64,000 nt of DNA. Origin: Candidatus Iainarchaeum sp. GTDB lineage: Archaea; Iainarchaeota; Iainarchaeia; Iainarchaeales; 1-14-0-10-31-34. The position numbers were made by a program, and so were the translations under genes. Position 1 is the first letter of the stretch; every line of letters starts with the position of its first letter. Below the pieces are notes generated by a model. It was not told where the DNA came from. It did not search any database and saw only the letters and a list, made by a program, of their open reading frames with translations. Of this stretch, positions 1-19,886 are shown one piece after another. Where the stretch lies: the NCBI GenBank assembly GCA_040755695.1, contig JBFMAK010000003.1, positions 101,879 through 165,878 on the forward strand, written 5' to 3'.

Positions 1-459
1 GCAACAAGAGAAGTGGCTGAGGAAATTGGATTTAAAGTCCCTGGAAAAATAAAACAATTCCCGTGGTTTAAAGTACAGAGCGCAGCAAAAGAGATTGGAA
101 TTGCAAAAAGAAAGTTCTCTTTTTACGGAGCCAAATTTAAGACTGTTCCAAAAGAAAAAGCGCCTGCTCTTGCAATAGTAAGGGATGTTGTCAATGGAAC
201 AATTGAACCATTATATGCGATTGATATAAAAACAAAAGAGCCAGACAAGCTTTTGAAAGAAAAATTTAGTGAGCTTCCAAACGGAATGCTAAGAGTAAAA
301 GAAGCAGAAGACGCGTGGGAAATGAAGTACGCCGCCAAAATTCCAAGAAATTCAAGAAGCATAAAAGAATTCATTGAAAAAAACAAAAAGAGCCTAACCC
401 AAACAGCACTCATATGCCTTTCAATCTATGCCGAAGAACTTGAAAAAACAGGAAAATAA
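1..459 (+). CDS. Hypothetical protein, 5' end truncated by window edge
   Basis: Frame 1 is open from nt 1 with no in-frame stop upstream of the GTG at 13. The product is Lys-rich. No family recognised. Confidence 0.45.
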   Translation, partial: ATREVAEEIGFKVPGKIKQFPWFKVQSAAKEIGIAKRKFSFYGAKFKTVPKEKAPALAIVRDVVNGTIEPLYAIDIKTKEPDKLLKEKFSELPNGMLRVKEAEDAWEMKYAAKIPRNSRSIKEFIEKNKKSLTQTALICLSIYAEELEKTGK

Positions 460-461
460 AA

Positions 462-1298
462 TTAATTCTTTTCCATCCAGTTTTCCACAAGCCTTTTTTC
501 TTTTAGTATTTCTTCTTCCTTCACGTTGCTGAAGTGCTCGAGGATAATTGGAATTTTCTTTATGCGCTTTATGCTTTTTAGTTTGGACAAAAATTTTGAA
601 TTTATTGGAGCGTGAACATCCTGGCCTTTCCTGTTTGAATGCAAGTGCACTTCAAAAATCTTTTCCTGCAATTTCAAAAGCCCACTTAAGGTGCCGTCGC
701 ACTGCGCGTGGCCAGTGTCAAAAAGCAGGCCTAATTCAGGGAATTCCTTAAAGACTTTTTTGAATCCCTGAAAGCCTGAAACTAATGCCCCGTCCTGGCT
801 CTTGATGTTCTCAATCGCAATCCTTGTTCCAGATGAATTTTTCTTGAAAAAGAAATCTATTACCTCAAACAAATTTTCAAATGACTCTGCTTTGTTTAAT
901 TCCCTCAATTTTACTGCTTCAGCATAACCTTCCTTCTTCCATTCAAGGCCCATTTCATACAAAAAGCCTGGGTGAAAGCCTATTGCTTCGGCTTCAACAA
1001 TCCTTGCTGCCTTAAGCATGTCCCCTGCAATCAATTTGTTTTCTTTTGTGAGGCCCAGAGAAGGATTAAACCACACCTGCTTTGCTAGGGGAGGAAAAAG
1101 GCCATGAATAGTGAAAGCTTTTTCAGGGAACCCCTTTCTAATTTTTTTAATTACTGCAAAAGGGCTTCCTTCGCTTACAGAATACTTGTGCGCTGCACCC
1201 AATTCAATTAAACTGAAACCCAATTCAGAGCAATTGATAATTGAATCCCTCAACCCAAAGCCTTTTGTGGCAAAATAACTAGAGCTCAATCCAATCAA
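462..1298 (-). CDS. Sugar phosphate isomerase/epimerase (xylose-isomerase-like TIM barrel)
   Basis: 278 aa. The LGLLFDTGHA motif and overall pattern fit TIM-barrel AP-endonuclease-2/xylose-isomerase-like enzymes. Confidence 0.55.
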   Translation of the reverse strand: MIGLSSSYFATKGFGLRDSIINCSELGFSLIELGAAHKYSVSEGSPFAVIKKIRKGFPEKAFTIHGLFPPLAKQVWFNPSLGLTKENKLIAGDMLKAARIVEAEAIGFHPGFLYEMGLEWKKEGYAEAVKLRELNKAESFENLFEVIDFFFKKNSSGTRIAIENIKSQDGALVSGFQGFKKVFKEFPELGLLFDTGHAQCDGTLSGLLKLQEKIFEVHLHSNRKGQDVHAPINSKFLSKLKSIKRIKKIPIILEHFSNVKEEEILKEKRLVENWMEKN

Positions 1299-1369
1299 TC
1301 AAAGCACCTGAGAAAGAAATACTTCATTAAATTTAAAAATTAATGCACTCAAAATATTTATGAAAAATT

Positions 1370-2212
1370 ATGAAAAAAGAGGAAAAGGAAAGGGTCACAG
1401 TAAACATTGACTCTGCACTGCTCTTAAGAGTGGATAAAATCATAAATGGGAGAGAGATAAGGAACAGGAGCCATGCATTCGAGTCCCTCATAACAAAGGC
1501 ATTGAACCTGAATTCCATTAATACTGCCTTCGTCCTTGCCGGAGGCAAGGGCACAAGGCTTAAGCCTTTTACTGATGAAATACCCAAACCCATGATTCCA
1601 GTGAAAGGCAGGCCCATAATAGATTACCTGGTTGAACTGCTCAGAAAACATGAAGTGAGAAACATAATATTCGCTTTGGGCCACAAGACCGACTCAATAA
1701 AAGAATATTTCGGCAATGGAACAAAATTCGGCGTAAAAATTACTTACATTGAAGAAGAAAAGCCTTTAGGCACAGGAGGACCGTTAAAATTAGCAAAAGA
1801 CCTGCTTAAAGAAGAATTTCTAATGTTTAATGGAGACAACCTCACAAACATCAATCTTGGGGAAATGATTTCATTCCACAAAAAGCACAATGCTCTCGCT
1901 ACAATTGCATTAAAGGCTGTTGAAGACCCGTCAAATTTCGGTGTAATGGAACTAGAGGGAGACAAAGTAATAGAATTTTTAGAGAAGCCAAAAAACCCTA
2001 AATCCAACTTAGTGAATGCTGGGGCCTATATACTCAAGCCTGAAATAATTGACATGCTGCCAAAAGGCTTTTCCCAGATAGAGAAAGCAGTCTTCCCAAA
2101 ACTTGCAGCTCAAGGAAAGCTTTATGGCTACATCTACAAAGGCCAATGGTTCCCCACAGACACCTTCGAAAGATACGAGAAAGCACTAAAGGAATGGAAA
2201 GGAATAAATTAG
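1370..2212 (+). CDS. Sugar-1-phosphate nucleotidyltransferase with N-terminal ribbon-helix-helix domain
   Basis: LAGGKGTRLKPFT (GxGTRL) NTP_transferase signature. The N-terminal ~45 aa (RVTVNIDSALLLRVDKII...NRSHAFESLITKAL) looks like a CopG/RHH fold. Confidence 0.75.
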   Translation: MKKEEKERVTVNIDSALLLRVDKIINGREIRNRSHAFESLITKALNLNSINTAFVLAGGKGTRLKPFTDEIPKPMIPVKGRPIIDYLVELLRKHEVRNIIFALGHKTDSIKEYFGNGTKFGVKITYIEEEKPLGTGGPLKLAKDLLKEEFLMFNGDNLTNINLGEMISFHKKHNALATIALKAVEDPSNFGVMELEGDKVIEFLEKPKNPKSNLVNAGAYILKPEIIDMLPKGFSQIEKAVFPKLAAQGKLYGYIYKGQWFPTDTFERYEKALKEWKGIN

Positions 2213-2223
2213 GAGGTAAAAAA

Positions 2224-3186
2224 ATGAAAAGAATTTTAATTACCGGGGTCAATGGTTTTGTTGGAAGCCATCTAAGCGAATTTTTATTGAACAACAATTT
2301 AGGAGAAGTGAATGGAGTTTTAAGAAACAAACATGAATCACTAAAAAATTTATCCAATATAAAAGAAAAAATTAAATTAATTGAAGCAGATATTAATGAT
2401 TTAAATGCAATCTCTGAAACAATAAAAGAAGTTCAGCCAGAGGTAATATTCCATCTTGCAGCACAGGCTTTTGTGCCAAGCTCATGGAATTCTCCTTTCG
2501 AGACATTAAACACAAACATCATGGGTTCACTGAACTTGTTTGAAGCAGTAAGGAAAAGCAATTCCAACCCGGTAATCCAAATAGCAGGAAGCAGCGAAGA
2601 ATACGGCCTGGTTAAAGAGGACGAAATCCCAATAAAAGAAAGCAACCCGCTAAGACCATTAAGCCCCTACGGAGTCAGCAAAGTAGCAATGGACATGCTC
2701 GGCTATCAATACTTCAAAAGCTACGGAATGAAAATTGTCAGGACAAGAGCATTCAACCACACGGGCCCAAGAAGAGGCGAAGTATACGCCACAAGCAATT
2801 TTGCGCACCAGATAGCAGAAATCGAAGCAAAAAAGAAAGAGCCAATATTATATGTTGGAAACCTTGAAGCAAAAAGAGACTTCACTGATGTTAGAGACAT
2901 GGTGAGGGCTTACTGGCTTGCAACGCAAAAATGCAAACCAGGAGAAGTATACAATATCTGTTCAGGCAAAAGCTACGCAATAAAGGAAATCATAGACAGA
3001 TTGATCAACCTGAGCAAAAACAAAAAAATCAAAATAGAGCAAGACCCAAAAAGAATGAGACCAAGCGATGTGCTAAATCTTCTGGGAGACAGCAACAAAT
3101 TCAGAAAAGAAACAGGCTGGAAGCCTGAAATAACATTCGAGCAAACCTTGAAAGACCTGCTTGACTACTGGAGAGCAAACATTTAG
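2224..3186 (+). CDS. NAD-dependent epimerase/dehydratase (GDP-mannose 4,6-dehydratase/reductase family)
   Basis: MKRILITGVNGFVGSHL Rossmann GxxGxxG, YGVSKV catalytic YxxxK, and FNHTGPRRGE motif. GGAGGT RBS lies 8 nt upstream of the ATG at 2224. The longer track ORF from 2146 overlaps the upstream gene. Confidence 0.75.
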   Translation: MKRILITGVNGFVGSHLSEFLLNNNLGEVNGVLRNKHESLKNLSNIKEKIKLIEADINDLNAISETIKEVQPEVIFHLAAQAFVPSSWNSPFETLNTNIMGSLNLFEAVRKSNSNPVIQIAGSSEEYGLVKEDEIPIKESNPLRPLSPYGVSKVAMDMLGYQYFKSYGMKIVRTRAFNHTGPRRGEVYATSNFAHQIAEIEAKKKEPILYVGNLEAKRDFTDVRDMVRAYWLATQKCKPGEVYNICSGKSYAIKEIIDRLINLSKNKKIKIEQDPKRMRPSDVLNLLGDSNKFRKETGWKPEITFEQTLKDLLDYWRANI

Positions 3187-4010
3187 GAAAGCCTTCTTTT
3201 CCTGAATTCCCTGAATGCCTCAATTGTTCCCTCAAACAATTTTCTTTTTGTTAAATGAATCCTTTTAATTTCTTTCATTTTCTCAGTTTTAATTTTGCTT
3301 TTATCCCCTACAAAATAGAATTCATAACTTAATTTCCTTTTCCTTAAAGGCTCAATCATTCTCAAGTCAGAAGGGCTGTCCCCGAAAAGCCTGTAAAACC
3401 TTACTCTCCTTCTTTGAGGCCCAAGCATTCCGAGAGCCTGGTCTGCAGCAAAAGCCTTGCTCACAGCAAAAGGCAAAAGGTCAACGGCATAAAGGCTTCT
3501 CACTACATGAAATCCTTTGTGTTTTAAAGAAATTTCTCTCATTAATTTTTCTGTTTTCTTAAGTCCTTGTTCAACAAGCACTGGATTCTTTCTTTTGATT
3601 TCATGAATGGCCTCAATTGTCACAACAGCTTGTTTTGTTTTATCATAAAACACGCCAGGAATTAATTTCACTTGCCTTCTAACCTTTTCCATTATATTTT
3701 TTGGAACACTAATTCTTCTGTTAATTTCCCTGATTAATTTTCCGCCAGAAATTCTTGCTGTAACAAGGCCGTGCTCGCCGACAAAAGAAATGTTATTCAC
3801 CGCATTAGGAAATTTTGCTTCAAAAGAATTGATTACCGGCAGCAGGTTTTTTTGAACCCAGTCAATCGAACGCCCTGAAACAAAGAAAACCTTGTGGCCC
3901 TCATTTGCTTTTTTCATGAACTCAAGTACTGCTTTTGGCTTTACATTGGCAAAGGCCCCAGTTACAGGCCCATCAATGTCAACCAGAAAACAGTCAATTC
4001 CATTTTGCAT
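3183..4010 (-). CDS. HAD-superfamily hydrolase (sugar-phosphate phosphatase-like, HAD-IIB)
   Basis: N-terminal FLVDIDGPV (DxD motif I), 275 aa. It sits in the sugar-nucleotide gene cluster. Confidence 0.6.
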   Translation of the reverse strand: MQNGIDCFLVDIDGPVTGAFANVKPKAVLEFMKKANEGHKVFFVSGRSIDWVQKNLLPVINSFEAKFPNAVNNISFVGEHGLVTARISGGKLIREINRRISVPKNIMEKVRRQVKLIPGVFYDKTKQAVVTIEAIHEIKRKNPVLVEQGLKKTEKLMREISLKHKGFHVVRSLYAVDLLPFAVSKAFAADQALGMLGPQRRRVRFYRLFGDSPSDLRMIEPLRKRKLSYEFYFVGDKSKIKTEKMKEIKRIHLTKRKLFEGTIEAFREFRKRRLS

Positions 4011-4079
4011 AACAGAAAACTAATTTATCTGAAAAGCTTTTTAATACATTCCTGGAACAAAAAATTACTGGAGCAGAGA

Positions 4080-4616
4080 ATGAAAGAAAAATTTCTGAAA
4101 GAGAAAATAAGGGCTGTGCCGGATTTCCCGAAAAAAGGAATAATGTTCAGGGACATTACCACCCTGCTGCAGGACGCGCAGGCATTCAGGACAGTAATAA
4201 ACGAATTTAAAGAGTATTACACCAAAAAAGGGATTGCTATAGACAAGGTTGCAAGCGCTGAATCAAGGGGCTTCATATTCGGAGCAGTGCTAGCGCATGA
4301 ACTTAACGCAGGATTCGTGCCGGTGAGAAAGCCAGGGAAACTTCCATGGAAGACAATAAAGCAGGAATTCAAGACAGAATACTCAACAGACGCATTCGAA
4401 CTGCACATGGACTCAATAAAAAAAGGCGACAGGGTGCTCATAGCAGATGATCTTCTTGCAACAGGAGGAACAATAGAGGCAATAATAAAATTAGTCGAAA
4501 AATTAGGGGGAAAAGTTGCAGGCATATGCTGCCTTGTAGAATTAAGCTTTCTTAAAGGCAGAAAAAAACTGAAGGGATACGATGTATTCTCTCTTGTAGA
4601 CTATGAAAGCGAATGA
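4080..4616 (+). CDS. apt: Adenine phosphoribosyltransferase
   Basis: VPDFPKKGIMFRDITTLLQD and VLIADDLLATGGT PRPP-binding motifs. Start was chosen at the internal ATG (MKEKFLKEK) to avoid overlap with the convergent HAD gene. Confidence 0.8.
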   Translation: MKEKFLKEKIRAVPDFPKKGIMFRDITTLLQDAQAFRTVINEFKEYYTKKGIAIDKVASAESRGFIFGAVLAHELNAGFVPVRKPGKLPWKTIKQEFKTEYSTDAFELHMDSIKKGDRVLIADDLLATGGTIEAIIKLVEKLGGKVAGICCLVELSFLKGRKKLKGYDVFSLVDYESE

Positions 4617-4640
4617 TTGATAAAAATAGGAGGAAAAAAA

Positions 4641-5417
4641 ATGATTGGATTGATTGGAGGCTCAGGATTTTATGACACGGCAATGCTCAAGAAAACAGAG
4701 CAGAAAAAAGTGCACACGCCATTCGGTGCGACAAGCGATTTGGTTACAACGGGAGAATTTGAAGAAAAAAAGATTGCATTCATTCCAAGGCACGGGGCAA
4801 AACACTCAATCAACCCATCGCAAGTGAATTACAGGGCGAATATCCAGGCAATGAAAGAATTAGGCGTCCAAAGAATAATTGCAGCAAACGCTGTAGGCTC
4901 ACTAAAAGAAGAAATGAAGCCAGGCGAGCTTGTAATAGTTGACCAATTCATTGATTTAACGAAAGGCAGAAAAAACACTTTCTATGAAGGCACGCAAGTA
5001 TGCCATATTTCTACTGCAGAGCCCTTCTGCAAAGAACTGAGAAAAATACTGATTGAATCAGCACAAAAACTAAGCCTGCCATTCCACGAGAAAGGAACAT
5101 GCATTGTAATTGAAGGCCCAAGGTTCTCAACAAAAGCAGAATCCATTCTCTTCAAATCATGGGGTGCAGACATAATAAACATGACCTTGTGCCCTGAAGC
5201 AGTCCTTGCAAGAGAAGCAGAAATATGCTATGCAGCAATAGCAATGGTAACAGACTACGACTGCTGGAAGGACAGCCATGCCACAGGAGCAGAAGTAGTG
5301 AAAATAATGAAAGAGAACGTCCACAAAATGCAAATGCTTGTAAAAGAAGCAATTCCACTTATCCCAGAGCAAAGGAAATGCGAATGCAAGGACGCATTAA
5401 AAAGCGCAATACAATAA
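4641..5417 (+). CDS. mtnP: 5'-methylthioadenosine / purine nucleoside phosphorylase
   Basis: MIGLIGGSGFYD start and overall PNP/MTAP family pattern. AGGAGG RBS before the ATG at 4641. Confidence 0.8.
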   Translation: MIGLIGGSGFYDTAMLKKTEQKKVHTPFGATSDLVTTGEFEEKKIAFIPRHGAKHSINPSQVNYRANIQAMKELGVQRIIAANAVGSLKEEMKPGELVIVDQFIDLTKGRKNTFYEGTQVCHISTAEPFCKELRKILIESAQKLSLPFHEKGTCIVIEGPRFSTKAESILFKSWGADIINMTLCPEAVLAREAEICYAAIAMVTDYDCWKDSHATGAEVVKIMKENVHKMQMLVKEAIPLIPEQRKCECKDALKSAIQ

Positions 5418-5436
5418 GGCATAAGTTTATATCATG

Positions 5437-5469
5437 TTATTAACATAATTATTTGATTAACATAATTAT
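5437..5469 (+). promoter_or_regulatory. Direct repeats (attaacataattat x2) plus TATA-like tttatat upstream of the TA operon; putative operator/promoter
   Basis: Two 14-nt direct repeats at 5439-5452 and 5456-5469, with tttatat at 5425-5431, immediately upstream of the RHH gene start at 5481. Confidence 0.4.
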
Positions 5470-5480
5470 GTGGTGGTCAG

Positions 5481-5786
5481 ATGAATGTGACTATGTCTGT
5501 TAGCGGTGTTTTGGAAAAAGAGATAAGAAGGAACCCGCAAATAAAATGGACTGAAATTGCAAGAAGGGCAATGATTGAAGAGGCGACTAAAATGAGAAAA
5601 CTTGAAATAATGCAAAAGTATATGGAAAAAAAAGAAATTGCTGACGAGGACTGGAAATGGATGGACTCCATTGATTGGCACCCAGTAGATGAAATGAATT
5701 ACAAGAAATCTTTTATTGAAAGAATAAAGAAAGCACAAAAAGAAAAAGCGATAAAAGTAGGTTCTGTTGATAAATTATTCAAGTGA
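5481..5786 (+). CDS. Putative RHH (CopG-like) antitoxin
   Basis: 101 aa. The N-terminal VSGVLEKEIRRNPQIKWTEIARRAMIEEA resembles a ribbon-helix-helix. It sits directly upstream of a RelE/ParE-like gene. Confidence 0.45.
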   Translation: MNVTMSVSGVLEKEIRRNPQIKWTEIARRAMIEEATKMRKLEIMQKYMEKKEIADEDWKWMDSIDWHPVDEMNYKKSFIERIKKAQKEKAIKVGSVDKLFK

Positions 5787-5790
5787 TTCA

Positions 5791-6060
5791 ATGGCTTATT
5801 CTCTTGAATCTGAGCCTTCATGCAAGAAAGCAATAAAGAAAGCATGCAAGAAAAACAAAGAACTGGAAAAAGCCTTAAAAAACAAGATTTCAGAAATCCT
5901 TGAAAACCCGCAGAGATTCAAGCCACTAAAATATAATCTTGCAGGCCAGCACAGAGTTCACATCCTTAAAAGCTTTGTTTTAACTTATGAAATCAATGAA
6001 AATTTAAAAACAGTAAAAATGCTTATTTTTGACCATCACGACAATATATATGAAAAATAA
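5791..6060 (+). CDS. RelE/ParE-family toxin
   Basis: C-terminal pattern NLAGQHRVHILKSFVLTYEINENLKTVKMLIFDHHDNIY is typical of RelE/ParE. The gene is small and sits 4 nt after the putative antitoxin. Confidence 0.55.
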   Translation: MAYSLESEPSCKKAIKKACKKNKELEKALKNKISEILENPQRFKPLKYNLAGQHRVHILKSFVLTYEINENLKTVKMLIFDHHDNIYEK

Positions 6061-6065
6061 TTTTT

Positions 6066-6962
6066 TTACATTGCTTCCAATGCCTTGATTCTTTCCTGTA
6101 TTGGCGGGTGAGTGCTGAACAGGTTGTCAAGCCAGCCGCCGTGGGCCTTTAACGGATTGGAGATGTACAAGTGCTCTGTTGCCTTGTTCGCTGCCTCTAA
6201 CGGTTCCTTGTCTGCATTAATCTTCTTTAATGCGTCAGCAAGGCCTTGAGGGTAACGCGTCAGCAAAGCGCCGTCAGCGTCCGCAAGGAACTCCCTCTTC
6301 CTGGAGATAGCGAACTTGACTAACTGGGCAATAATTGGAGTTAAAATTGCAAGCACAATTCCAATTATTACTAGAACAAACCAGCCTTTTTCTGCCTCCC
6401 TCCTTGAGCCTCTTGAACCCCAGAACATTGACCTTAAAATCAAGTCAGAGACAAGGGCAGCAATTCCCACAAGAACAACAACTATTGTCATGAACCTGAC
6501 ATCATAATTCTTTATGTGGCTCATCTCATGGGCTATAACTCCCTCTAATTCCAGTCTCTTGAGCCTCTGCACTGCGCCCGTGGTAACTACAATAACTGAA
6601 TGTTCTGGATCCCTTCCAGAAGCAAAGGCATTGATTGCTGTATCATCAATAACATAAATTTTAGGCATTGGAATTCCTGCTGCAATTGCAAGGCCTTCAA
6701 CGCTGTTGTAAAGGAAAGGAAACTCTTTTGGGTCAGCAGGCCTTGCCTTGCTTATTGCCAGAACAATTGAATCAGAATTATAGTAGGAAATCAAAACAAA
6801 AATTATTGAAACAACAATTGCAATTCCTGCTCCTAAAAATATGTCTCCCCACACTGCCCCGAGGACAACGCCAAGAAAAGCAATTAATACAACAAAGAGA
6901 ACGAAAAGGATTACTGAATTCCTCTTGTTTGAGGAAATCCTGCCGTAAACATTTTCTGCCAT
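6066..6962 (-). CDS. htpX: Zinc metalloprotease HtpX (M48)
   Basis: HEMSH (HExxH) motif, C-terminal STHPP motif and multiple TM segments. Start was set at the third ATG (MAENVYGR); the ORF could extend to 6998. Confidence 0.85.
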   Translation of the reverse strand: MAENVYGRISSNKRNSVILFVLFVVLIAFLGVVLGAVWGDIFLGAGIAIVVSIIFVLISYYNSDSIVLAISKARPADPKEFPFLYNSVEGLAIAAGIPMPKIYVIDDTAINAFASGRDPEHSVIVVTTGAVQRLKRLELEGVIAHEMSHIKNYDVRFMTIVVVLVGIAALVSDLILRSMFWGSRGSRREAEKGWFVLVIIGIVLAILTPIIAQLVKFAISRKREFLADADGALLTRYPQGLADALKKINADKEPLEAANKATEHLYISNPLKAHGGWLDNLFSTHPPIQERIKALEAM

Positions 6963-7038
6963 AAAAAAACACTTGAACTGCATTAAACCGTAATTCAATT
7001 AATAATTAAAAAACAAAAAAAAGAAAAAGGGAGAGGAA

Positions 7039-7608
7039 TTAAAATGAAACCTTGACTGGCTCCCTTGAACCTGCTTCGACCTCAAAGAATTCCTTTTGAG
7101 TGAACTGGAACATTCCTGCAACAATGTTTGAAGGAAAAGTCTGAATAGAATTATTGTAATCCAAAACTGAATCATTGTAGAACTGCCTTGCGTAAGCAAT
7201 CTTTGACTCAATGCCATCCAACTGCTCTTGAAGAAGCTTGAAGTTCTCGTTTGCCTTCAATTGAGGATAGGCTTCAGCCACAGCAAACAAAGTCTTCAAT
7301 GCCCCAGTAAGAAAGTTCTCTGCCGCAGCCTTGTCCTTCATTCCCTGGGCGTTAGCAACCTGAGACCTTGCCTGGGTCACCTTCTCAAATACTTCCCTTT
7401 CATGCTTTGCATAGCCCTTCACTGTTTCTACAAGATTAGGCACTAAATCAAACCTTTTCTTCAATTGGACGTCAATCTGGCTCCAGGAATTGTTCACCCT
7501 GTTCCTTTTCACTATAAGGCCGTTGAAGATTGCTATTAGCACTAGAACTACAATTACTATTATGACCAGTATTACAATTGAAATCAATGAAACAAAATCA
7601 AAAGCCAT
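7039..7608 (-). CDS. lemA: LemA family protein
   Basis: N-terminal TM then LemA-like helical domain ([20 protein letters not shown]...). HtpX-LemA adjacency is a recurrent pairing. Confidence 0.8.
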
Positions 7609-7681
7609 TAAACAAAACCTCCGTTATACCTATTGCTCACGAATATAATAAAAAGCTTTTCATAACCAGAAAATAAATCCA

Positions 7682-8314
7682 ATGAGCACAATAACAGCAT
7701 TCGCAGGAATAGGAATAGGCACATTCACAGAAATAATTGCAATGGCAGGATACTGGGGGGTATTCCTTTTAATGCTTTTAGAGAGCACTGCAGCACCAGT
7801 GCCATCAGAATTGGTCATGCCCTTTGCCGGATTCCTTGTGAGCGCAGGAAGAATGGACTTACTCACAGTAATACTAATTGCCTCTGCAGGGTCAATTATT
7901 GGCTCACTTATATCTTACTGGATTGGAAGAGAATTAGGAAAGCCCTTCATCAAAAAATACGGGAAATATGTACTGCTGAATTTGCACCATCTTGAGCTCA
8001 CAGAAAAATTCTTTTCCAGGCACGGCACAAAAACAATATTCTTCAGCAGATTCATTCCAGTAATAAGGCACCTCATATCAATTCCAGCAGGAGCAGCAAA
8101 AATGAATTTACTGAAATTCAGCTTCTACACATTCCTTGGCGCCCTCGGATGGAATTCAATCCTAGTGTTTGCAGGCATCAAACTTAAAGAGAATTGGGTG
8201 CAGTTAACCAAATTCACTGAAGCAGTGGACATGATAATAATAATAATCATAATTGCAGCAGCAACCGCCTTCTTCTGGAGCGCAAAAAAACACAGGCAAA
8301 GAAAACACAAATAG
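7682..8314 (+). CDS. DedA/SNARE-associated (VTT domain) membrane protein
   Basis: ESTAAPVPSELVMPFAGFLV and FFSRFIPVIRHLISIPAG motifs typical of the DedA family. Confidence 0.75.
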   Translation: MSTITAFAGIGIGTFTEIIAMAGYWGVFLLMLLESTAAPVPSELVMPFAGFLVSAGRMDLLTVILIASAGSIIGSLISYWIGRELGKPFIKKYGKYVLLNLHHLELTEKFFSRHGTKTIFFSRFIPVIRHLISIPAGAAKMNLLKFSFYTFLGALGWNSILVFAGIKLKENWVQLTKFTEAVDMIIIIIIIAAATAFFWSAKKHRQRKHK

Positions 8315-8387
8315 CCCAAGAATTGGCAACAAATAAAAAGCTTTCTTCACCTAAAATATAACATTTAATTCTCAAGCGTGAAAAAAA

Positions 8388-10622
8388 TTGAACAAAGTCT
8401 TCCTTGCACTATGCATTCTAACACTAACCCAATTAATAGGCACTGCAAGCGCCTTAAGCGTAACAATATCAATTAATTCAGGCGCACAATACACAAACAA
8501 CAACACAGTAACTTTAACCCTAACATCAGACGATCAAAGCGTAAACTGCGATTACGCAAACGACTCAAATTCAAATTACAGCGGAAGCCCAACGCCCTTC
8601 ACTGCAACAAAAAGCTGGACATTAAGCGCAGGAGACGGCGCAAAAACTGTTTATTATAAATGCACTGATGTGAACTTAAACACAGCAGAAGCAAACAATT
8701 CAATAACACTGGACACAAGCGCTCCAACAGTGAATATTTTGCAGCCAAATGGAGCTACAACCTCAAACACTGTGTCCTTTGACTTGAACGAAACAGGAAG
8801 CGAAATAAACTTAAGCACAGTAACAGTGCTGCTCAACGGAGCAGAATCATCCTTCAATTCCTCAAACTGCACCTTAGACGGAGGGCTTAACTACCACTGC
8901 TCTTACACCGAAACAAAAATAGACAAAAACGGAAATTACACAATTGACGTTAATGCCCAAGACAACGCAGGAAATTTGGGCACTGCAACATCCACTTTCA
9001 CTTACACTGACTCAACTCCTCCAAGTGCTCCCACAAATTTTACTGCAACAGGGGGACACCTTCAAATAAGCCTTAATTGGACTGCAAACACTGAATACGA
9101 CCTAAACGGATACAATATTTATTTCAGTACAACACAAAACTTTGACACTAATGCTCAAACACTTTTGATTTTTACAACCTCAAACTCTTATCCCCACATA
9201 TACCTTCAGGCAAGCACAACATACTACTACAAAATAAAAGCAAAAGACAAGACAGGCAATGAATCAACAGCAAGCAATGCAAACGCAACAACAAATGCTC
9301 CTGATGGAACGGCCCCAACAACAGCCTATTCAGGGCCTGATGACGCATGGCATAATTCAAATGCAAGCATCACATTAACATGCAGCGACACAGGAGGAGC
9401 AGGATGCAAATTAATCAGCTACAGAATTAATTCAGGTTCATGGAATTATGTAAGCGGCCCAAGCTCGGCCTTCACCATAAGCAATGAAGCAGACAACCTG
9501 CTTGAATTCTATTCAACAGACAATTCAGACAACAATGAATCAATGCAATCAAAGCACGTGAAAATAGACAAGACAGTTCCAAAGCCTTCACTTACAGCAA
9601 CAGGCTACAGCTCAAGAATAGAATTAACCTGGAGCGCTATAACGGACTCCCTTTCAGGGTTAAAAGAATATTTCGTGAAAAAGAATGATGAGGCATGGAT
9701 AAGCAATGCCAGAAGCACAACATACAATTTTGCTGGCTTAACAAACGGCACATTGTACAACTTCAAATTAAAGGTTGTAGACAACGCAGGAAATGAAACA
9801 GAAAGCGACCCTGTCTCTGCAACGCCAACTTCATCCTCAACTTCAGGCAGTTCAGGCGGGGGCTCAAGCGATACAACTGCCCCTAATTTAAGCTGGACCT
9901 TCCCAGCAGACGCAAACTATGAATTGAAAGATTATAATATTACATTAAAAGTCAATGCATCAGACTATGACAGCGGGCTAGCAATAATAATTTTATCATA
10001 CAGGAAGACAGACCAGAACACTTACACTAGAATCACAAATATTACTGAGCCAACAAACGGAACAAACTCCTATAAATGGGAGCTTTCCTCAGACATGAAT
10101 TCAGGAACACACGAATTAAAGGCCGTAGCAAGAGACGAGGCAGGAAACATTGCAACAAAAACAATTACAATAAAAATTACTTTGCCAGCAGCAGTAAATC
10201 CAGCAAAGCCAGCAGACCAAAATAAGGTTGAAGACAAAAACAAGACAACAGGAACAGAAGACAAAAATAAAAGCAAAGAAACAGTAGGCACAGCAGTGGG
10301 AACAGAAAACCAGCTTGAAGGCACTGCAGGGAAAGGAGAAGAAACAACAAATCCCTTCACAGGCCTTGCTTCAGGATTAATGAAAAACATAATCCCAGTA
10401 ATTGGAATAATTGTAGTGCTTGTAGTAATAGCATTCGTTGCAGTAAAAGCAAAGAACAGGGTAGGGCGCCTTGGAAGGGACGACTTGGTCGGAGTCAATG
10501 CAAGAATAGAAACAGGATTTCATGGAATAAGCTCAAAGCCAAGCCCGCCAGGAAGCAAGACATTAGAAATAATCAAGAGAGAAATAGAGGCAGAGCACAC
10601 AGGAAAATTCGCAAGAAAATAA
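8388..10622 (+). CDS. Secreted cell-surface protein with FN3/Ig-like repeats, N-glycosylation sequons and a C-terminal TM anchor
   Basis: Signal peptide MNKVFLALCILTLTQLIGTASALS. The protein is Thr/Ser/Asn-rich, with repeated DNAGN-type Ig-like motifs and an FN3-like segment. A TM helix (IIPVIGIIVVLVVIAFVAV) lies near the C-terminus. Confidence 0.7.
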   Translation: MNKVFLALCILTLTQLIGTASALSVTISINSGAQYTNNNTVTLTLTSDDQSVNCDYANDSNSNYSGSPTPFTATKSWTLSAGDGAKTVYYKCTDVNLNTAEANNSITLDTSAPTVNILQPNGATTSNTVSFDLNETGSEINLSTVTVLLNGAESSFNSSNCTLDGGLNYHCSYTETKIDKNGNYTIDVNAQDNAGNLGTATSTFTYTDSTPPSAPTNFTATGGHLQISLNWTANTEYDLNGYNIYFSTTQNFDTNAQTLLIFTTSNSYPHIYLQASTTYYYKIKAKDKTGNESTASNANATTNAPDGTAPTTAYSGPDDAWHNSNASITLTCSDTGGAGCKLISYRINSGSWNYVSGPSSAFTISNEADNLLEFYSTDNSDNNESMQSKHVKIDKTVPKPSLTATGYSSRIELTWSAITDSLSGLKEYFVKKNDEAWISNARSTTYNFAGLTNGTLYNFKLKVVDNAGNETESDPVSATPTSSSTSGSSGGGSSDTTAPNLSWTFPADANYELKDYNITLKVNASDYDSGLAIIILSYRKTDQNTYTRITNITEPTNGTNSYKWELSSDMNSGTHELKAVARDEAGNIATKTITIKITLPAAVNPAKPADQNKVEDKNKTTGTEDKNKSKETVGTAVGTENQLEGTAGKGEETTNPFTGLASGLMKNIIPVIGIIVVLVVIAFVAVKAKNRVGRLGRDDLVGVNARIETGFHGISSKPSPPGSKTLEIIKREIEAEHTGKFARK

Positions 10623-11061: not shown

Positions 11062-13833
11062 ATGGCTTTGAATGCAATAACAATTATAGGCGCAGGACCT
11101 GTTGGGTTAAAGACAGCAATAGAGTTAAAGAAGGAAGGCTGGGACCCAAAAGTAATAGAAGAACACACTGAAATTGGGGTTCCAGAAAACTGTTCAGGCC
11201 TCATAAGCGTTTCAGGAGTAAAAGAAACAAAATTAGACGTAGAAGACATTACAGTCAACAAAGTCAAAGGCGCAATAATCAAAGCGCCTAATGGAATTGA
11301 ATTAAAAATAGAGAGAAGCAGACCAGTGGCATATGTTATAGAAAGAAAGAAGTTAGACAAAAAGTTTTATGCCGAAGCCCTCAAAAAAGGAATTGAGGTA
11401 AGGACAGAGACAAGGCTCATAGACCTAAGGAAAGACACCTTATTCCTGCAGTTCAGGCAGAGAGGCGAAATGATGAAAACAGAGCTTCTCATAGGAGCAG
11501 ACGGCGTGAACTCAAAAATAAGAAAATTAATGAATTTAGGCGCGAACCCAGAGCACTTTGTCCTCACAACGCAAGTGAGAGCAAAAGGCTCATTCAACAA
11601 AGACTTCGTGGAATTAAGTTTTGGAGAACAGTACAAAGGATTCTTTGCGTGGACAATTCCAGAGAGCAGTACAACAGCAAGGATTGGGGTTGGAGTAAAG
11701 CCAGGCATGAACCCAAAAACTGCCCTTCAGAAATACATGAATGGAATGAAAGTAGAAGTATTAAGCGAAAGCTCTTCACTGATTCCAATAGGAAAGCCCC
11801 TGAGAGAAATTTCAACAGAAAAAATTCTTTTACTGGGAGACGCTGCCTTTCAAACAAAAGCAACAAGCATTGACTATGAAGAGCCAATAATAATATTAGA
11901 AAACGGTCTGATTAAGACTGTTAGGATAGGAGAATTAATAAATAATGAAATGAAAAAAAACGAGAACAATATAAAAACTATCACTGGAAGCCCTGAAATA
12001 AAGCTATTGGAACTAAAAAAAGAAATTAATTCTTTTTCTCCAATGAAAAATGGCTCAGAACCCAAATTTAGAAAAATAGCAAACATTCTAAAACATTCAA
12101 TAAAAGAAGACTTGTATGAAATTATTCTCGAAAAAGGCTATAGAATAAAAGCAACTGAATCACACAGCATAATTACTTTGGGGCAAAAACAACTTGAAGA
12201 AAAGAAGGTTTCAGAACTAAAAGCAAACAAAGACCATTTATTAATGTGCACACGCCTGCCAAACAATGAAATACTAAAAGAAATAAACATCATTGAATTT
12301 ATTTTAAGAGAAAAACCAGAATTAATCCCCTTAATTAGAGTTAAAGGGGGAAGAAAATACATTTTTTCAAAACAAAGTGAAGTACCCAAAAATTTGTTGA
12401 CAGCTTACTGGTATGAAGATTCAATTCCATTAAAAGTTTTTGTTGAAAAAGGTATAATACCAAAAGATGCAAGAATAAGTTACTTAAAATCAGGTTTAAA
12501 AATAAAAAACGGGCTTCAAATCACGCCGGAATTATGTAGGCTGTTAGGGTATTATGTTGCAGAAGGCAGTTGTAAAAAAGGAAAAAATATTAGTTTGACT
12601 TTCGGCAAACAAGATATTGAGAACGGAATAGTAGAAGACACAATTAAATGTATTCAATATGTTTTTGAATTTAAACCAACAAAATATCAGTACAAAAAAA
12701 ACCCTTTAACCAAAAAGATTTCAGCTGTAACAATAACCTTTGGTGGTTCATTACTTTCAGAACTTTTCTCTAATATTTTGAAAGGCGGAAGAAGCGCCAA
12801 AACAAAAGAAGTACCTTTCATTATTTTTAATGTGCTAGAACACCTTAAAATTGAATTCTTAAAGGGTTATCTCAACGGCGATGGAACAATAAGAATAAGA
12901 GAATCAAGTAAAAGAAAGAACTGGAATGCAGAAATTTCTTGCAAGACGGTAAGCAGAAAACTTGCAAGTGACTTAATAACCCTTTCTCTTCAGATGGGAA
13001 TGCTTCCAAGTATAGAAGAGTTTTCTGCTAAAGAAAGAAAAATCTATGGCAAAAAAATTGTTGAAAGCAATGGTTACAAAGTGGCTTTCTCAAAAAAAGA
13101 GGACTTACTGAGACTTTCAGAAGTTTTCCCAAAAAAAACAAGTGAGTTAATTGGTTTTCTTAATGAAATTAAATCAAAATCAACTTCGGGCATACCAAAA
13201 GAATATTTTGCCTTCACTTCAAACCAAAAATATGCTACAGAACTAATAGAAGAATTTGGGCCATCAATATATACAGCTTACAATAAACTTGATTCTAAAA
13301 GAGTTTCCTTTGCAATGCAAAAAATGATAACAAAAAACGAAAGAATTCAATTAATACAAAATTTAATTCAATCAAATATTGCAGTATTTAAAATAAAAGA
13401 AATAAGAAAAGTTAAACCAACCAATAACGAAGTTTTTGATGTTCACATCCCAGAAACAAACATGTTTGTTGGAGGGCTTGGAGCAATACTCCTTCATAAT
13501 ACAGGCGGGGGCATTATTACAGGAATGATGGCAGCAGAAGCAGCAGTAAAGACAATAAGCAATTACTACAAGAAAAAAAAGCCTTTAACTGAATACAGCA
13601 AACACTTAAGCCATTTAAACAAGGAATTAGAATTGCACTGGAGGATAAGAAAATACTTGAATTCACTGAACGACAAGCAATTGAACGAACTGTTCATCAA
13701 ACTAAAGAAAGCAAGAATTGAAGAATTCCTTGCAGAGCACGGCGACATGGACAGGCCCTCAAAATTCATGGGCAAAATCCTTACAACCCCAAGGCTGTGG
13801 AGCCTGGCACCATTAGCATTAAAGCTCAGGTGA
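11062..13833 (+). CDS. Geranylgeranyl reductase (FAD-dependent, archaeal lipid saturation) interrupted by an intein
   Basis: IIGAGPVG FAD dinucleotide motif and ELLIGADGVNSKIR motif. The GGR signature GDAAxxxxPxTGGGI is split as GDAAFQTKAT | intein | TGGGI. Confidence 0.85.
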   Translation: MALNAITIIGAGPVGLKTAIELKKEGWDPKVIEEHTEIGVPENCSGLISVSGVKETKLDVEDITVNKVKGAIIKAPNGIELKIERSRPVAYVIERKKLDKKFYAEALKKGIEVRTETRLIDLRKDTLFLQFRQRGEMMKTELLIGADGVNSKIRKLMNLGANPEHFVLTTQVRAKGSFNKDFVELSFGEQYKGFFAWTIPESSTTARIGVGVKPGMNPKTALQKYMNGMKVEVLSESSSLIPIGKPLREISTEKILLLGDAAFQTKATSIDYEEPIIILENGLIKTVRIGELINNEMKKNENNIKTITGSPEIKLLELKKEINSFSPMKNGSEPKFRKIANILKHSIKEDLYEIILEKGYRIKATESHSIITLGQKQLEEKKVSELKANKDHLLMCTRLPNNEILKEINIIEFILREKPELIPLIRVKGGRKYIFSKQSEVPKNLLTAYWYEDSIPLKVFVEKGIIPKDARISYLKSGLKIKNGLQITPELCRLLGYYVAEGSCKKGKNISLTFGKQDIENGIVEDTIKCIQYVFEFKPTKYQYKKNPLTKKISAVTITFGGSLLSELFSNILKGGRSAKTKEVPFIIFNVLEHLKIEFLKGYLNGDGTIRIRESSKRKNWNAEISCKTVSRKLASDLITLSLQMGMLPSIEEFSAKERKIYGKKIVESNGYKVAFSKKEDLLRLSEVFPKKTSELIGFLNEIKSKSTSGIPKEYFAFTSNQKYATELIEEFGPSIYTAYNKLDSKRVSFAMQKMITKNERIQLIQNLIQSNIAVFKIKEIRKVKPTNNEVFDVHIPETNMFVGGLGAILLHNTGGGIITGMMAAEAAVKTISNYYKKKKPLTEYSKHLSHLNKELELHWRIRKYLNSLNDKQLNELFIKLKKARIEEFLAEHGDMDRPSKFMGKILTTPRLWSLAPLALKLR
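11866..13500 (+). other. Intein (545 aa) with LAGLIDADG homing-endonuclease domain, inserted in GGR
   Basis: Starts with Ser (SIDYEE...). Block B TESHSIIT, LAGLIDADG blocks LLGYYVAEGS and LKGYLNGDGT, and terminal ...VFDVHIPETNMFVGGLGAILLHN followed by +1 Thr (TGGGI). Confidence 0.8.
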
Positions 13834-13974: not shown

Positions 13975-14070
13975 AGCCCCGAGGAAATTTGAATCTGCGG
14001 ATTCAAAAACCTCGTGTCTGATAGCCCCGAGGAAATTTGAATCTGCGGATTCAAAAACCTCGTGTCTGAT
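13975..14070. repeat. Two tandem 48-bp direct repeats, each carrying a degenerate copy of the tRNA-Gln 3' end
   Basis: agccccgaggaaatttgaatctgcggattcaaaaacctcgtgtctgat occurs at 13975-14022 and 14023-14070. Its reverse complement ends ...TTCAAATTTCCTCGGGGCT, versus ...GTTCGAATCTCCTCGGGGCT in the tRNA. Confidence 0.8.
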
Positions 14071-14142
14071 AGCCCCGAGGAGATTCGAACTCCTGTCATC
14101 TCCTCCAGAGGGAGACATCCTTGACCGCTAGACTACGGGGCT
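14070..14142 (-). tRNA. tRNA-Gln (anticodon CUG)
   Basis: Minus-strand sequence AGCCCCG-TA-GTCT-AGCGGTCAA-GGAT-G-TCTCC-CTCTGGA-GGAGA-TGAC-AGGAG-TTCGAAT-CTCCT-CGGGGCT-A folds as a cloverleaf with all four stems paired. Anticodon loop is CT-CTG-GA. A1:U72 is typical of archaeal tRNA-Gln. CCA is not encoded. Confidence 0.85.
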
Positions 14143-14217: not shown

Positions 14218-14694
14218 TTAAGTGACAACGCATATGGCTCCATTTTTTTGTTTGTCACTGAATACTTGATTAGGCGTAAAATATTTAAGGCTTGAGTGCG
14301 GAGTGTTGTTGTACTCGCGCTGGAAGCGCGAGAGTAAGCGGTTAGCGTGTTTGAGGTTTTGAACCTCGAACTCATTCAAGAATCGTTTTATTTTTTTGAT
14401 GACTGCTTCTGCTTTTCCGTTGCATTTGGGATTGTGAATGCGTGTGTGAATGTGTTTGATGCCTAATAGACTGGCATCAAAGTTTTTGTGGTATTGTCTA
14501 CCATTGTCAGATAACAAGGCTTTGAATCCCCCCGTTTCTCGGATTGCTTGTTGTAGGTTGTCTATTGTGTTTGCAAGCGTTGCATGAGAATATGCTTGCA
14601 GTGCAAACAGTTTTCTGGATGCATCATCTTCATAGAATGAGAAGCAACAGTGTACTCCATCCAAAATGCGTTTTCTGCCCCAATCCGTATGCAT
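14218..14694 (-). CDS. Transposase C-terminal part (integrase core rve domain, DDE)
   Basis: HTDWG ... LLSDNGRQY ... NPKCNGKAEAVIKK match the D, D, E regions of rve transposases. The reading frame probably continues upstream of the first Met. Confidence 0.65.
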   Translation of the reverse strand: MHTDWGRKRILDGVHCCFSFYEDDASRKLFALQAYSHATLANTIDNLQQAIRETGGFKALLSDNGRQYHKNFDASLLGIKHIHTRIHNPKCNGKAEAVIKKIKRFLNEFEVQNLKHANRLLSRFQREYNNTPHSSLKYFTPNQVFSDKQKNGAICVVT

Positions 14695-18963: not shown

Positions 18964-19320
18964 ATGAGGGAAAGCGTCTTCTTGGATTTCTTGGGAAACT
19001 CGCCTACAGCGCGGGTTTTGGACTTCCTTATTACTGGAAGAGAATTTGATTACTCTCTGACTGACATAGCCGAAAAATCTGAAATAGGCTGGACGACCTT
19101 GCACAGGATTCTACCATCACTGAAGAAAATGGAAATACTTGTCCCTACAAGGGCAGTAGGGAGGGCAAGGCTGTACAAGCTCAACCAAAAAAACGAGAAC
19201 GTGAAGAAGCTGATTGAATTGTACGACAGCCTGCTCAAAAGAGAGTTGGGCAAGGCAGAAGAAGAAAGCAGAGTGAAAGCAGTTGCAATTGAAAAGACAA
19301 GAAAAAGAACTAAAAACTAA
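18964..19320 (+). CDS. Winged-helix transcriptional regulator
   Basis: VLDFLITG ... LTDIAEKSEIGWTTLHRILPSLKKMEILVPTRAVGRARLYKLN is a wHTH. Start at internal ATG (MRESVFLDFL). Confidence 0.5.
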   Translation: MRESVFLDFLGNSPTARVLDFLITGREFDYSLTDIAEKSEIGWTTLHRILPSLKKMEILVPTRAVGRARLYKLNQKNENVKKLIELYDSLLKRELGKAEEESRVKAVAIEKTRKRTKN

Positions 19321-19334
19321 TTAAACAGAATTAA

Positions 19335-19502
19335 GGGAGGTATCAGAACCTGTTGGAGGGAGGTATCGGATCCTATCGAAGGGGGGTATCGGAACCGTGG
19401 GTTCTGATAAGTACTACCAAGCGAATGCGAAGGTAGTACTGTGATGTCAACTGGCACTGGCAGTTGTTAAAAATTAGAAGAAGGAAAGCATTGCGCTTTC
19501 CT
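19335..19502. repeat. GC-rich structured region: three direct repeats gGGAGGTATCrGAwCC at 23-nt spacing plus several inverted repeats
   Basis: Direct repeats at 19335-19350, 19358-19373 and 19381-19396. Inverted repeats: tatcagaacc (19341-50) with ggttctgata (19400-09); gtactacc...ggtagtac (19411-39); ggaaagc-attgc-gctttcc (19483-19501). Confidence 0.45.
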
Positions 19503-19712
19503 CCTTTGCCTTTTGTCTTCTTTTGCAGAATTCGGGGTGATATACCCGGTGTATTATTATAGGCGTTGAATTTATTAACCTTTTGGCATCTGAAAAGCTA
19601 ACCTTTGGGCAAGAAAAATTTTGGATTATTTACTTGAATTTATTGCCTTCTTTTAATTAAATATTTAAATTTTTTCTAATGGAGATTAATTTAGCTGAAA
19701 GAGGCAGAAAAA

Positions 19713-19886
19713 ATGGACTTAAGCCATTACATCAAGAAAAACAGGGTTAAAGCAGGAGACTTTGGGGCTCCAGCCAAGAGATGCCTTCAATGCGGCAAAG
19801 AATTAGAGAGAAACGAATCCCATTTATACTACCAAAGCTTCTGCTGCGAATTCTGCAAGCAAAAATACCTAAGCCCGAAATTATAA
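19713..19886 (+). CDS. Small zinc-ribbon protein (57 aa, CxxC...CCxxC)
   Basis: Translates to MDLSHYIKKNRVKAGDFGAPAKRCLQCGKELERNESHLYYQSFCCEFCKQKYLSPKL. Below the ORF-track length cutoff, so not listed there. Confidence 0.4.
   Translation: MDLSHYIKKNRVKAGDFGAPAKRCLQCGKELERNESHLYYQSFCCEFCKQKYLSPKL

Follow-up and report, generated by a model that had tools for sequence, protein, structure and literature searches.

A wHTH gene (18964–19320, + strand) of the window, by which we mean the whole 64-kb stretch of DNA analysed here, is followed by a block of repeats and hairpins within 19321–19560, with the stop codon 14 nt before the first repeat unit. The ORF is a weak HTH match (HTH_IclR, E 0.003; DUF7342, E 4e-4; both under the Pfam cut-off), an identical protein has been annotated in a Candidatus Diapherotrites MAG, and 163 homologues were found across DPANN archaea. 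Because the gene order around it (66-aa ORF, DUF192, wHTH, 650-aa protein, FlaI-like ATPase) is syntenic in relatives, wHTH is a conserved host gene of DPANN archaea. In the window, its neighbourhood also includes genes for a HATPase_c_4 regulator, a DUF192 protein and a Zn-ribbon protein. An ORF of 923 aa farther upstream (11062–13833) has FAD-binding and geranylgeranyl-reductase-like domains and also contains an intein and a LAGLIDADG endonuclease.

The three 16-nt direct repeats (GGGRGGTATCRGAWCC) reported in the first-pass annotation are present at 19335–19350 (GGGAGGTATCAGAACC), 19358–19373 (GGGAGGTATCGGATCC) and 19381–19396 (GGGGGGTATCGGAACC), and the exact 23-nt periodicity ascribed to them holds, with start-to-start distances of 23 and 23 nt. 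The 23-nt units together cover 19334–19402. The degenerate 16-mer occurs three times in 64 kb against 0.04 expected, a count reached in 0 of 100 shuffles, and each repeat contains GGAGGT or GGGGGT, in agreement with the SD-like GGAGGT described earlier. A claimed long-range inverted repeat was likewise found, TATCAGAACC (19341–19350) and GGTTCTGATA (19400–19409) pairing perfectly over 10 nt. This right arm pairs with the third repeat as well, across a 3-nt loop and with one G.U.

The block is made of two modules. The first of these, which we call E, is defined by an RGGAGG tail, TATCGGAACC, a loop of 2–5 nt and GGTTCTGATA, with a G.U at stem position 5. The complete copy at 19379–19411 (+ strand) consists of a GGGGGG tail, TATCGGAACC (19387–19396), the loop gtg and GGTTCTGATA (19400–19409), and belongs to the E family with GGGGGG in place of GGGAGG. 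It is the sole full E of the window (48.9 bits, E 5e-12) under covariance model R1, which was built from 43 other E copies and the window copy itself and which returned very few degenerate extras elsewhere. Upstream of it, repeat unit 1 (19334–19356, + strand, AGGGAGGTATCAGAACCTGTTGG) is an extra E tail and left-arm copy, the TATCAGAACC of which is the perfect complement of the right arm, and repeat unit 2 (19357–19379, + strand, AGGGAGGTATCGGATCCTATCGA) is an extra left-arm copy with one deviation (GGATCC). Left-arm duplications at 23–24 nt were also found at six other loci (L015, L169, L164, L163, L140 and L138); the 23-nt phased copies are duplicated left arms.

The second module, H2-H3, begins right after E on the + strand with hairpin H2 (19410–19440), in which AGTACTACC and GGTAGTACT form a 9-bp stem (19410–19418/19432–19440) around a 13-nt loop, AAGCGAATGCGAA. 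Hairpin H3 (19448–19466, + strand) has the form CAACTG..CAGTTG, with its stem at 19448–19456/19458–19466. Downstream lies what we call the T-block (19476–19549), composed of a hairpin AGAAGAAGGAAAGC/GCTTTCCTCCTT at 19478–19506, a T-rich tract and a small hairpin GGGGTGATATACCC at 19532–19549. Beside the inverted repeat, the hairpins found were thus H2, H3 and the two of the T-block, where two had been claimed. On the + strand no T-run follows the E, H2 or H3 hairpins, and the 19478–19506 hairpin has a T-run on both strands. Folding of 19321–19530 compared to shuffles gave z = -3.5 for the + strand and z = -4.7 for the - strand.

The earlier description of the region as 'far more GC-rich than its surroundings' was too strong: the peak is 0.51, nearby values are 0.22–0.45 and neighbouring coding DNA reaches 0.45–0.6, so that the GC excess of the block is modest. 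The suggested small structured RNA finds partial support, since the hairpins are conserved elsewhere and H2-H3 carries compensatory changes, but no known RNA family matches. More specifically, no Rfam 15 family was found in 19200–19720 at either gathering or E-value thresholds (the best match, sraA over the T-block on the minus strand, scored 24 bits where 56 are required), and ARAGORN called no tRNA at the repeat block.

Syntenic wHTH loci and the stretch downstream

The repeats follow the wHTH gene solely in the two closest relatives. The locus with the 86% identical wHTH (L169) has two arms, H2-H3 and the T-block, and the one with the 76% identical wHTH (L164) has two arms, a variant E'' (see below), H2-H3 and the T-block. 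In L164 an extra gene of 147 aa, unrelated to the 195-aa gene of the window, stands between wHTH and the array. Three loci with a 68% identical wHTH (L166-168) have the T-block alone at a clean empty site, other genes abut wHTH in L170-173, and the repeats are absent after both the 68% and the 63–69% homologues. The presence of the cassette in the window, L169 and L164 and the empty site in L166-168 therefore identify it as an indel with an unstable number of arms; arm number and spacing differ among the three loci that carry it. Cassette identity between the window and L164, at 77%, equals that of the wHTH gene and thus reflects the background rate of divergence; this comparison gives no sign of special constraint.

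The T-block behaves differently from the cassette. It starts 9 nt after the window cassette, outside the inserted unit and inside the interval originally annotated, and is kept even in relatives that have neither E nor H2-H3. Its sequence is nearly invariant in the window, L164 and L166-168 save for the hairpin loop, and it is terminator-like on both strands. On the minus strand a 13-bp hairpin and a T5 terminator are preceded by a TATA-like sequence, and the T-block may be a small minus-strand RNA.

The 246-nt 'intergenic' stretch after H3 (19467 on) is 95.9% identical to L164, and a 57-aa CxxC..CxxC Zn-ribbon ORF (19713–19886) is 94.2% identical, while the flanking genes reach just 76–85%. 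Phased repeats also occur after H3, namely TAACCTTTKGGCA (19576, 19599) and TTGAATTTATT (19566, 19634). These identities suggest that 19467–19886 encodes an RNA missing from the annotation, has a regulatory role under strong constraint, or was transferred recently.

Distribution and settings of the two modules

A first pattern applied to species genomes was loose, returning 95 stretches against about 86 estimated by chance, and the only real relative among the matches inspected was a Woesearchaeota contig (L015) with two phased copies at a period of 23 and the same inverted arm. A metagenome scan with the palindrome gave 67 loci, of which about 50 carry a full E and about a dozen tail-less matches look like chance. 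In these roughly 50 metagenomic and MAG loci of DPANN archaea E is nearly unchanged, and the positions left free by the pattern (the GGAGG tail, the G of the left arm and the T of the right arm) are kept in all 49 of 49 copies. Since a match needed 20 exact bases, the scan sampled no degenerate relics, and this conservation is partly a matter of ascertainment. Two variants change the apical stem with pairing kept: E' (GATAAGAACC / GGTTCTTAT) has ATAAGAACC/GGTTCTTAT at this position, and E'' (TATCGGAAAAAC gta GTTTTTCTGATA) has AAAAAC/GTTTTT. Because both preserve pairing, the hairpin is conserved and not the duplex sequence alone. Neither E nor H2-H3 has an Rfam entry, and no description of either was found in the literature by sequence or topic.

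Several readings of E were tried and set aside. A coding motif, GGIGTxGSD, does not account for the conservation: copies whose loop has 2, 4 or 5 nt, or reads TAA, lose the frame, and even synonymous positions show no variation. A viral origin was considered, and an IMG/VR scan gave one chance match, inside a phage ORF. E bears what we take to be a resemblance to hix/gix half-sites, and no serine-recombinase motif was found in any locus or in the window, which speaks against a serine invertase site. C/D-box, H/ACA and K-turn readings of the hairpins were set aside on inspection, as the copies do not share the candidate boxes.

Copies of E also lie against stable-RNA genes. Wherever an annotated RNA gene comes within 5 nt of E (10 of 10 cases), it is the GATA end that faces the gene, irrespective of the strand: in nine cases the neighbour is the 3' end of an opposite-strand tRNA or 5S gene, and in one it is a tRNA 5' end on the same strand. 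E lies 0–1 nt before a tRNA 5' end and a 16S 5' end (the latter in L128), and in L140 an E'' lies 3 nt beyond the 16S 3' end. Where E is read in reverse after tRNAs, CCTCCC and T-rich sequence follow.

Within tRNAs, E forms the last 28 nt of canonical-position tRNA-Ile(GAU) introns in three lineages and ends exactly at the predicted 3' splice site. These introns, of about 50 to 190 nt at position 37/38, were seen in L097 (~1130–1420), L098 and L099 (2175–2299), and also in L124 and L137; the CTGATA of E repeats the tRNA-Ile(GAU) anticodon loop, and a bulge-helix-bulge built by hand for the E-ended introns has a U.U in the central helix. On the strand opposite to E, five loci (L109, L110, L115, L139 and L154) have what look like tRNA genes whose T-loop is interrupted by an intron of about 44 nt, and by inspection only this intron is a reverse-orientation E between TATCAG and CTGATA; Rfam and ARAGORN called none of these five candidates. 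Both orientations of E thus seem to occur inside tRNA introns and the + orientation has no U tract, which makes a terminator unlikely as its general role.

Elsewhere E separates housekeeping genes that run in one direction, in many cases with a TATA-like box 7 nt further on, or it stands in frame at the end of a gene. Copies at the ends of unrelated genes occupy all three reading frames. E is mostly co-oriented with the flanking protein genes. In L131/L144 (~1020–1060) it stands in frame directly after an Elp3-like start codon (MPK-GGIGTAGSD-IADYSKQ..), with a diverged copy of a nearby coding segment 382 nt upstream. In L163 (2100–2540, minus strand) an acylphosphatase-like gene lies between direct-orientation E-type elements, with an E' having its own 23-nt arm duplication and a degenerate E on one side and a canonical E on the other.

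The reverse complement of E resembles the 16S 3' terminus (GAACCTGCGG-ACGGATCACCTCC against GAACCTGCGGTTCCGAT-ACCTCC), a likeness matched in 0 of 2000 shuffles. A tandem E/E'' array in L138, when reversed, aligns with the 16S 3' end and trailer of L140 (score 73); the array (8140–8410) alternates E and E'' before a tRNA, and its counterpart (L140, 9530–9610) is from the same metagenome on another contig. In L140 (7243–9572) the Rfam SSU match ends at 8610 and the canonical 16S 3' end (..GGATCACCTCCT) is at 9572, so that this 16S gene may carry an insertion or intron of about 0.8–0.9 kb near its 3' end. A small ORF separates its 16S-tRNA-Ala from the 23S gene.

The second module was defined as two hairpins of about 58 nt in all with conserved stems and compensatory changes, a family to which the window copy belongs (nhmmer E 3e-16). 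Eight copies were found by nhmmer and synteny. Three are 0–4 nt upstream of tRNAs (one in L100 and two in L138), one is upstream of the E array that precedes a further tRNA in L138, one is 19 nt upstream of the 23S gene in L140, and three come after E at the wHTH loci of the window, L169 and L164. The junction GATA|AG(T/C)ACTAC between E and H2 is shared by the window, L169, L164 and L100 and is present in a degenerate form in L138, where the leader modules have no Rfam match. Across the stems 97.3% of cells are paired and three pairs are changed on both sides. The covariation score was exceeded in 0 of 500 shuffles and controls with slid pairing collapse, a result supportive of a conserved structure among eight related sequences and short of proof. 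Within about 20 nt 3' of the window H2-H3 no stable-RNA gene is recognisable, the T-block taking this place, and the only tRNA in the window has neither an H2-H3 nor an E leader.

E also has a link to mobile elements that carry integrases. L106 has a complete 8.6-kb integrative element (355–8994) in the 3' end of a 5S rRNA gene. Its limits are marked by 30-nt direct att repeats that match the 3' end of this gene, and it contains a tyrosine integrase, a PLD-like nuclease, many unknown ORFs and a CcdA-like RHH ORF that runs into E. E is located at the inner edge of the repeat adjoining the intact 5S gene. When the two junctions are joined, one stop-free ORF of 361 aa results, in the order RHH, GGIGTVGSDK (E), WLPAFPASR (core) and integrase, which is the architecture of integrases split by integration. 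A decayed homologue (L156), with a 29-nt repeat of the 5S 3' end, is the other of the only two complete elements bounded by direct repeats that were observed; it measures 2.8 kb and carries a TIR-domain protein. CcdA-like RHH ORFs run into E in at least nine loci, including L101/L145, L117, L122, L135, L158 and L162, and in L124 a complete tyrosine recombinase ORF follows E and the tRNA-Ile 3' exon in frame.

Target-site duplications across about 49 E loci were found solely in L121, where a complete tRNA-Pro is followed after 58 nt by E, behind which the 3' part of the tRNA is repeated as an identical copy of 24 nt, and in L119, where a gene end and E are followed by a synonymously diverged second copy of the same gene end. 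In the window, a search of everything to the left of E for a repeat of the 70 nt on its right found none, and no homologue of the CcdA-like RHH protein or the tyrosine integrase was found. The sole recombinase candidate of the window is a truncated DDE (rve) transposase ORF (14218–14694, minus strand), 75 nt from a tRNA-Gln gene (14070–14142, minus strand).

Origin of the window cassette and rival explanations

We tentatively favour, with somewhat less than even confidence, the explanation that 19334–19466 represents an orphaned or vestigial end of an element of this family, joined to a stable-RNA-leader module in the 3' region of the wHTH gene. The analysis shows that the copy belongs to the family, in which settings the family occurs, the split-integrase architecture and the indel status of the cassette. 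In a family of split (SSV-type) integrase elements E sits inside the integrase gene, between the N-terminal RHH domain and the att core, and therefore integration puts E against the target gene with its GATA end outward. H2-H3, which elsewhere stands as the immediate 5' leader of tRNA and 23S rRNA genes, is joined to E in the window at a site just after the wHTH stop codon and just before the conserved terminator-like block. The window copy would then be a relic or a non-autonomous copy of an element end, and the cassette is probably carried passively in the wHTH 3' UTR. On active elements, E and the arm repeats are predicted to form a DNA or folded-hairpin site for the integrase's own RHH domain, and we infer that E with its phased arm copies is the site this domain binds. 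As the window holds no integrase, RHH ORF or flank repeat, the derivation of its copy from an integration is inferred by homology. Other observations weigh against this explanation as well: only two complete elements bounded by direct repeats were observed; E and H2-H3 are gained and lost together at the wHTH locus, which speaks for a composite unit more than for integration into an H2-H3 already in place; the pairing-preserving apical changes and the 2–5 nt loop point to selection on a hairpin and not on a fixed double-stranded site; and many E copies lie between housekeeping genes or in tRNA introns with no element genes nearby.

The main rival, which we hold to be somewhat unlikely, is that E, H2 and H3 form a functional RNA module, transcribed and serving as signals that guide processing, protect ends or direct folding where stable RNAs and introns terminate, with integrative elements merely copying a host signal. 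In the window the cassette would then lead a small RNA missing from the annotation (the T-block) or form a structure that stabilises the 3' UTR. This reading would account for the covariation of H2-H3 and its place 0–19 nt upstream of four tRNAs and 23S, for E at 0–1 nt from 16S and tRNA 5' ends and at the 3' splice site of tRNA-Ile introns, for the G.U kept on the + strand, the co-orientation with protein genes, the compensated stem variants and the relative-conserved block 9 nt after the window cassette. However, the same blunt GATA end faces the RNA gene on either strand, which a DNA junction predicts, and which is awkward for a single RNA function because two RNA sequences would have to fill one role. 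The T-block also stands without the cassette in L166-168, E lies within an integrase ORF and in mobile DNA bounded by direct repeats, the sole tRNA of the window lacks such a leader, and the cassette evolves no slower than neighbouring coding DNA. Presence and absence at syntenic sites would also suit a self-standing miniature palindromic mobile element (REP-/MITE-like, or a hairpin recognised by an HUH or other enzyme). Such an element would insert by itself into tRNA loops and close to the ends of genes, and its association with the integrase elements would be incidental. Copies in all three reading frames at unrelated gene ends, both orientations in tRNA introns and the tandem arrays of L138 agree with this, and the junctions of the window, L164 and L169 can be read as flanked by TTAA with a single TTAA at the empty site, but TTAA is frequent by chance in the AT-rich DNA here and these flanks are indistinguishable from chance. 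With a single copy in 64 kb, flanking duplications in 2 of about 49 copies, an empty serine-recombinase motif scan, and no consistently nearby transposase (no RAYT- or TnpA-like gene was seen), we regard such an element as quite unlikely.

An array of operator sites for the adjacent wHTH protein had been proposed in the first-pass annotation. Such an operator, or an iteron array, through which the protein would control its own gene or the one downstream, now seems very improbable. Direct repeats spaced by two helical turns, with an inverted copy, beside the gene of a DNA-binding protein would suit an operator, and in L135 a distant wHTH homologue lies about 160 nt upstream of E. This weak match is nevertheless the only wHTH near other E copies by tblastn and phmmer; the motif does not accompany wHTH beyond the closest relatives, some 50 other copies lie beside unrelated genes with no wHTH, the wHTH promoter and upstream region contain no copy, and arm number, spacing and loop length vary. 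On the window alone, the repeats are no evidence of a wHTH regulon. A replication origin (ORB/iteron) was rejected, as no initiator gene (Rep, Orc1/Cdc6) is adjacent and the motif is dispersed beside RNA genes elsewhere.

Returning to the element-end explanation, a wider hypothesis, which we consider unlikely and offer as speculation, would make E the tag of split-integrase elements that seed DPANN tRNA introns, with the hairpin recognised by the integrase RHH domain. Integration would occur at anticodon-loop, T-loop or 3'-end positions, the element would decay, and the E-bearing stub would be spliced as a bulge-helix-bulge intron or kept as a leader or trailer; copies like that of the window would be fossils, and the likeness between reversed E and 16S would reflect an ancestral rRNA-targeting att core. 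If true, one 30-nt tag would join att sites, tRNA/rRNA gene flanks and non-self-splicing tRNA introns, three subjects mostly treated separately in archaea, in the little-known DPANN lineages, and the element origin of archaeal tRNA introns and split tRNAs would become directly testable. It would also mean a new integrase architecture (RHH, hairpin, core, catalytic domain), and annotators would gain two covariance models for unexplained 'structured intergenic regions'.

Comparison with known systems

In SSV1/SSV2 of Sulfolobus and their kin, the integrase ORF contains the att core and is split into Int(N) and Int(C) upon integration; such elements target the 3' portion of a stable-RNA gene, copies of which stand as direct repeats on either side of the element. 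L106 resembles them in its att core within the integrase ORF and in the repeats of the 5S 3' part that flank the element. The DPANN elements differ in that their N-terminal part is a CcdA-like RHH domain, in the nearly invariant 28–31-nt hairpin E between RHH and core, and in having 5S rRNA among their targets and DPANN archaea as hosts. The flank repeat and the RHH Int(N) running into E with an integrase, which mark an SSV-type att junction, are found in L106 and not in the window, where the copy stands without any element genes.

Direct repeats with an inverted copy, accompanied by a small beta-sheet DNA-binding domain, are also known from lambda-like arm-type sites and from the operators of RHH proteins (omega, CopG, Arc). 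By analogy, E may be comparable to both, given direct repeats and an inverted copy beside a recombination core and an RHH domain encoded with the recombinase. In the hairpin formed by the arms of E, the apical stem and the loop both vary in a compensated manner, for which double-stranded operators have no need.

The short imperfect palindrome, with a conserved 5' tail and mismatch, in intergenic DNA near gene ends and sometimes in tandem, is reminiscent of REP/BIME and MITE sequences; unlike these, E is low in copy number (one in 64 kb), conserved across phyla and found inside an integrase ORF. As a hairpin leader before rRNA, and also before tRNAs, H2-H3 might be likened to the bacterial rRNA leader boxB-boxA-boxC, from which it differs in having no sequence similarity, an archaeal host and, for the window copy, no recognisable stable RNA behind it.

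For intron gain, the closest precedent is a recombinase-bearing mobile element that has been linked to new archaeal tRNA introns and tRNA fragments (Sugahara et al., 2012, PMC3293823). The likeness is that an element-end sequence, E, forms the 3' ends of tRNA-Ile(GAU) introns as well as putative T-loop introns. Here the phylum is another one, and a specific conserved tag ties element ends to intron ends across many lineages.
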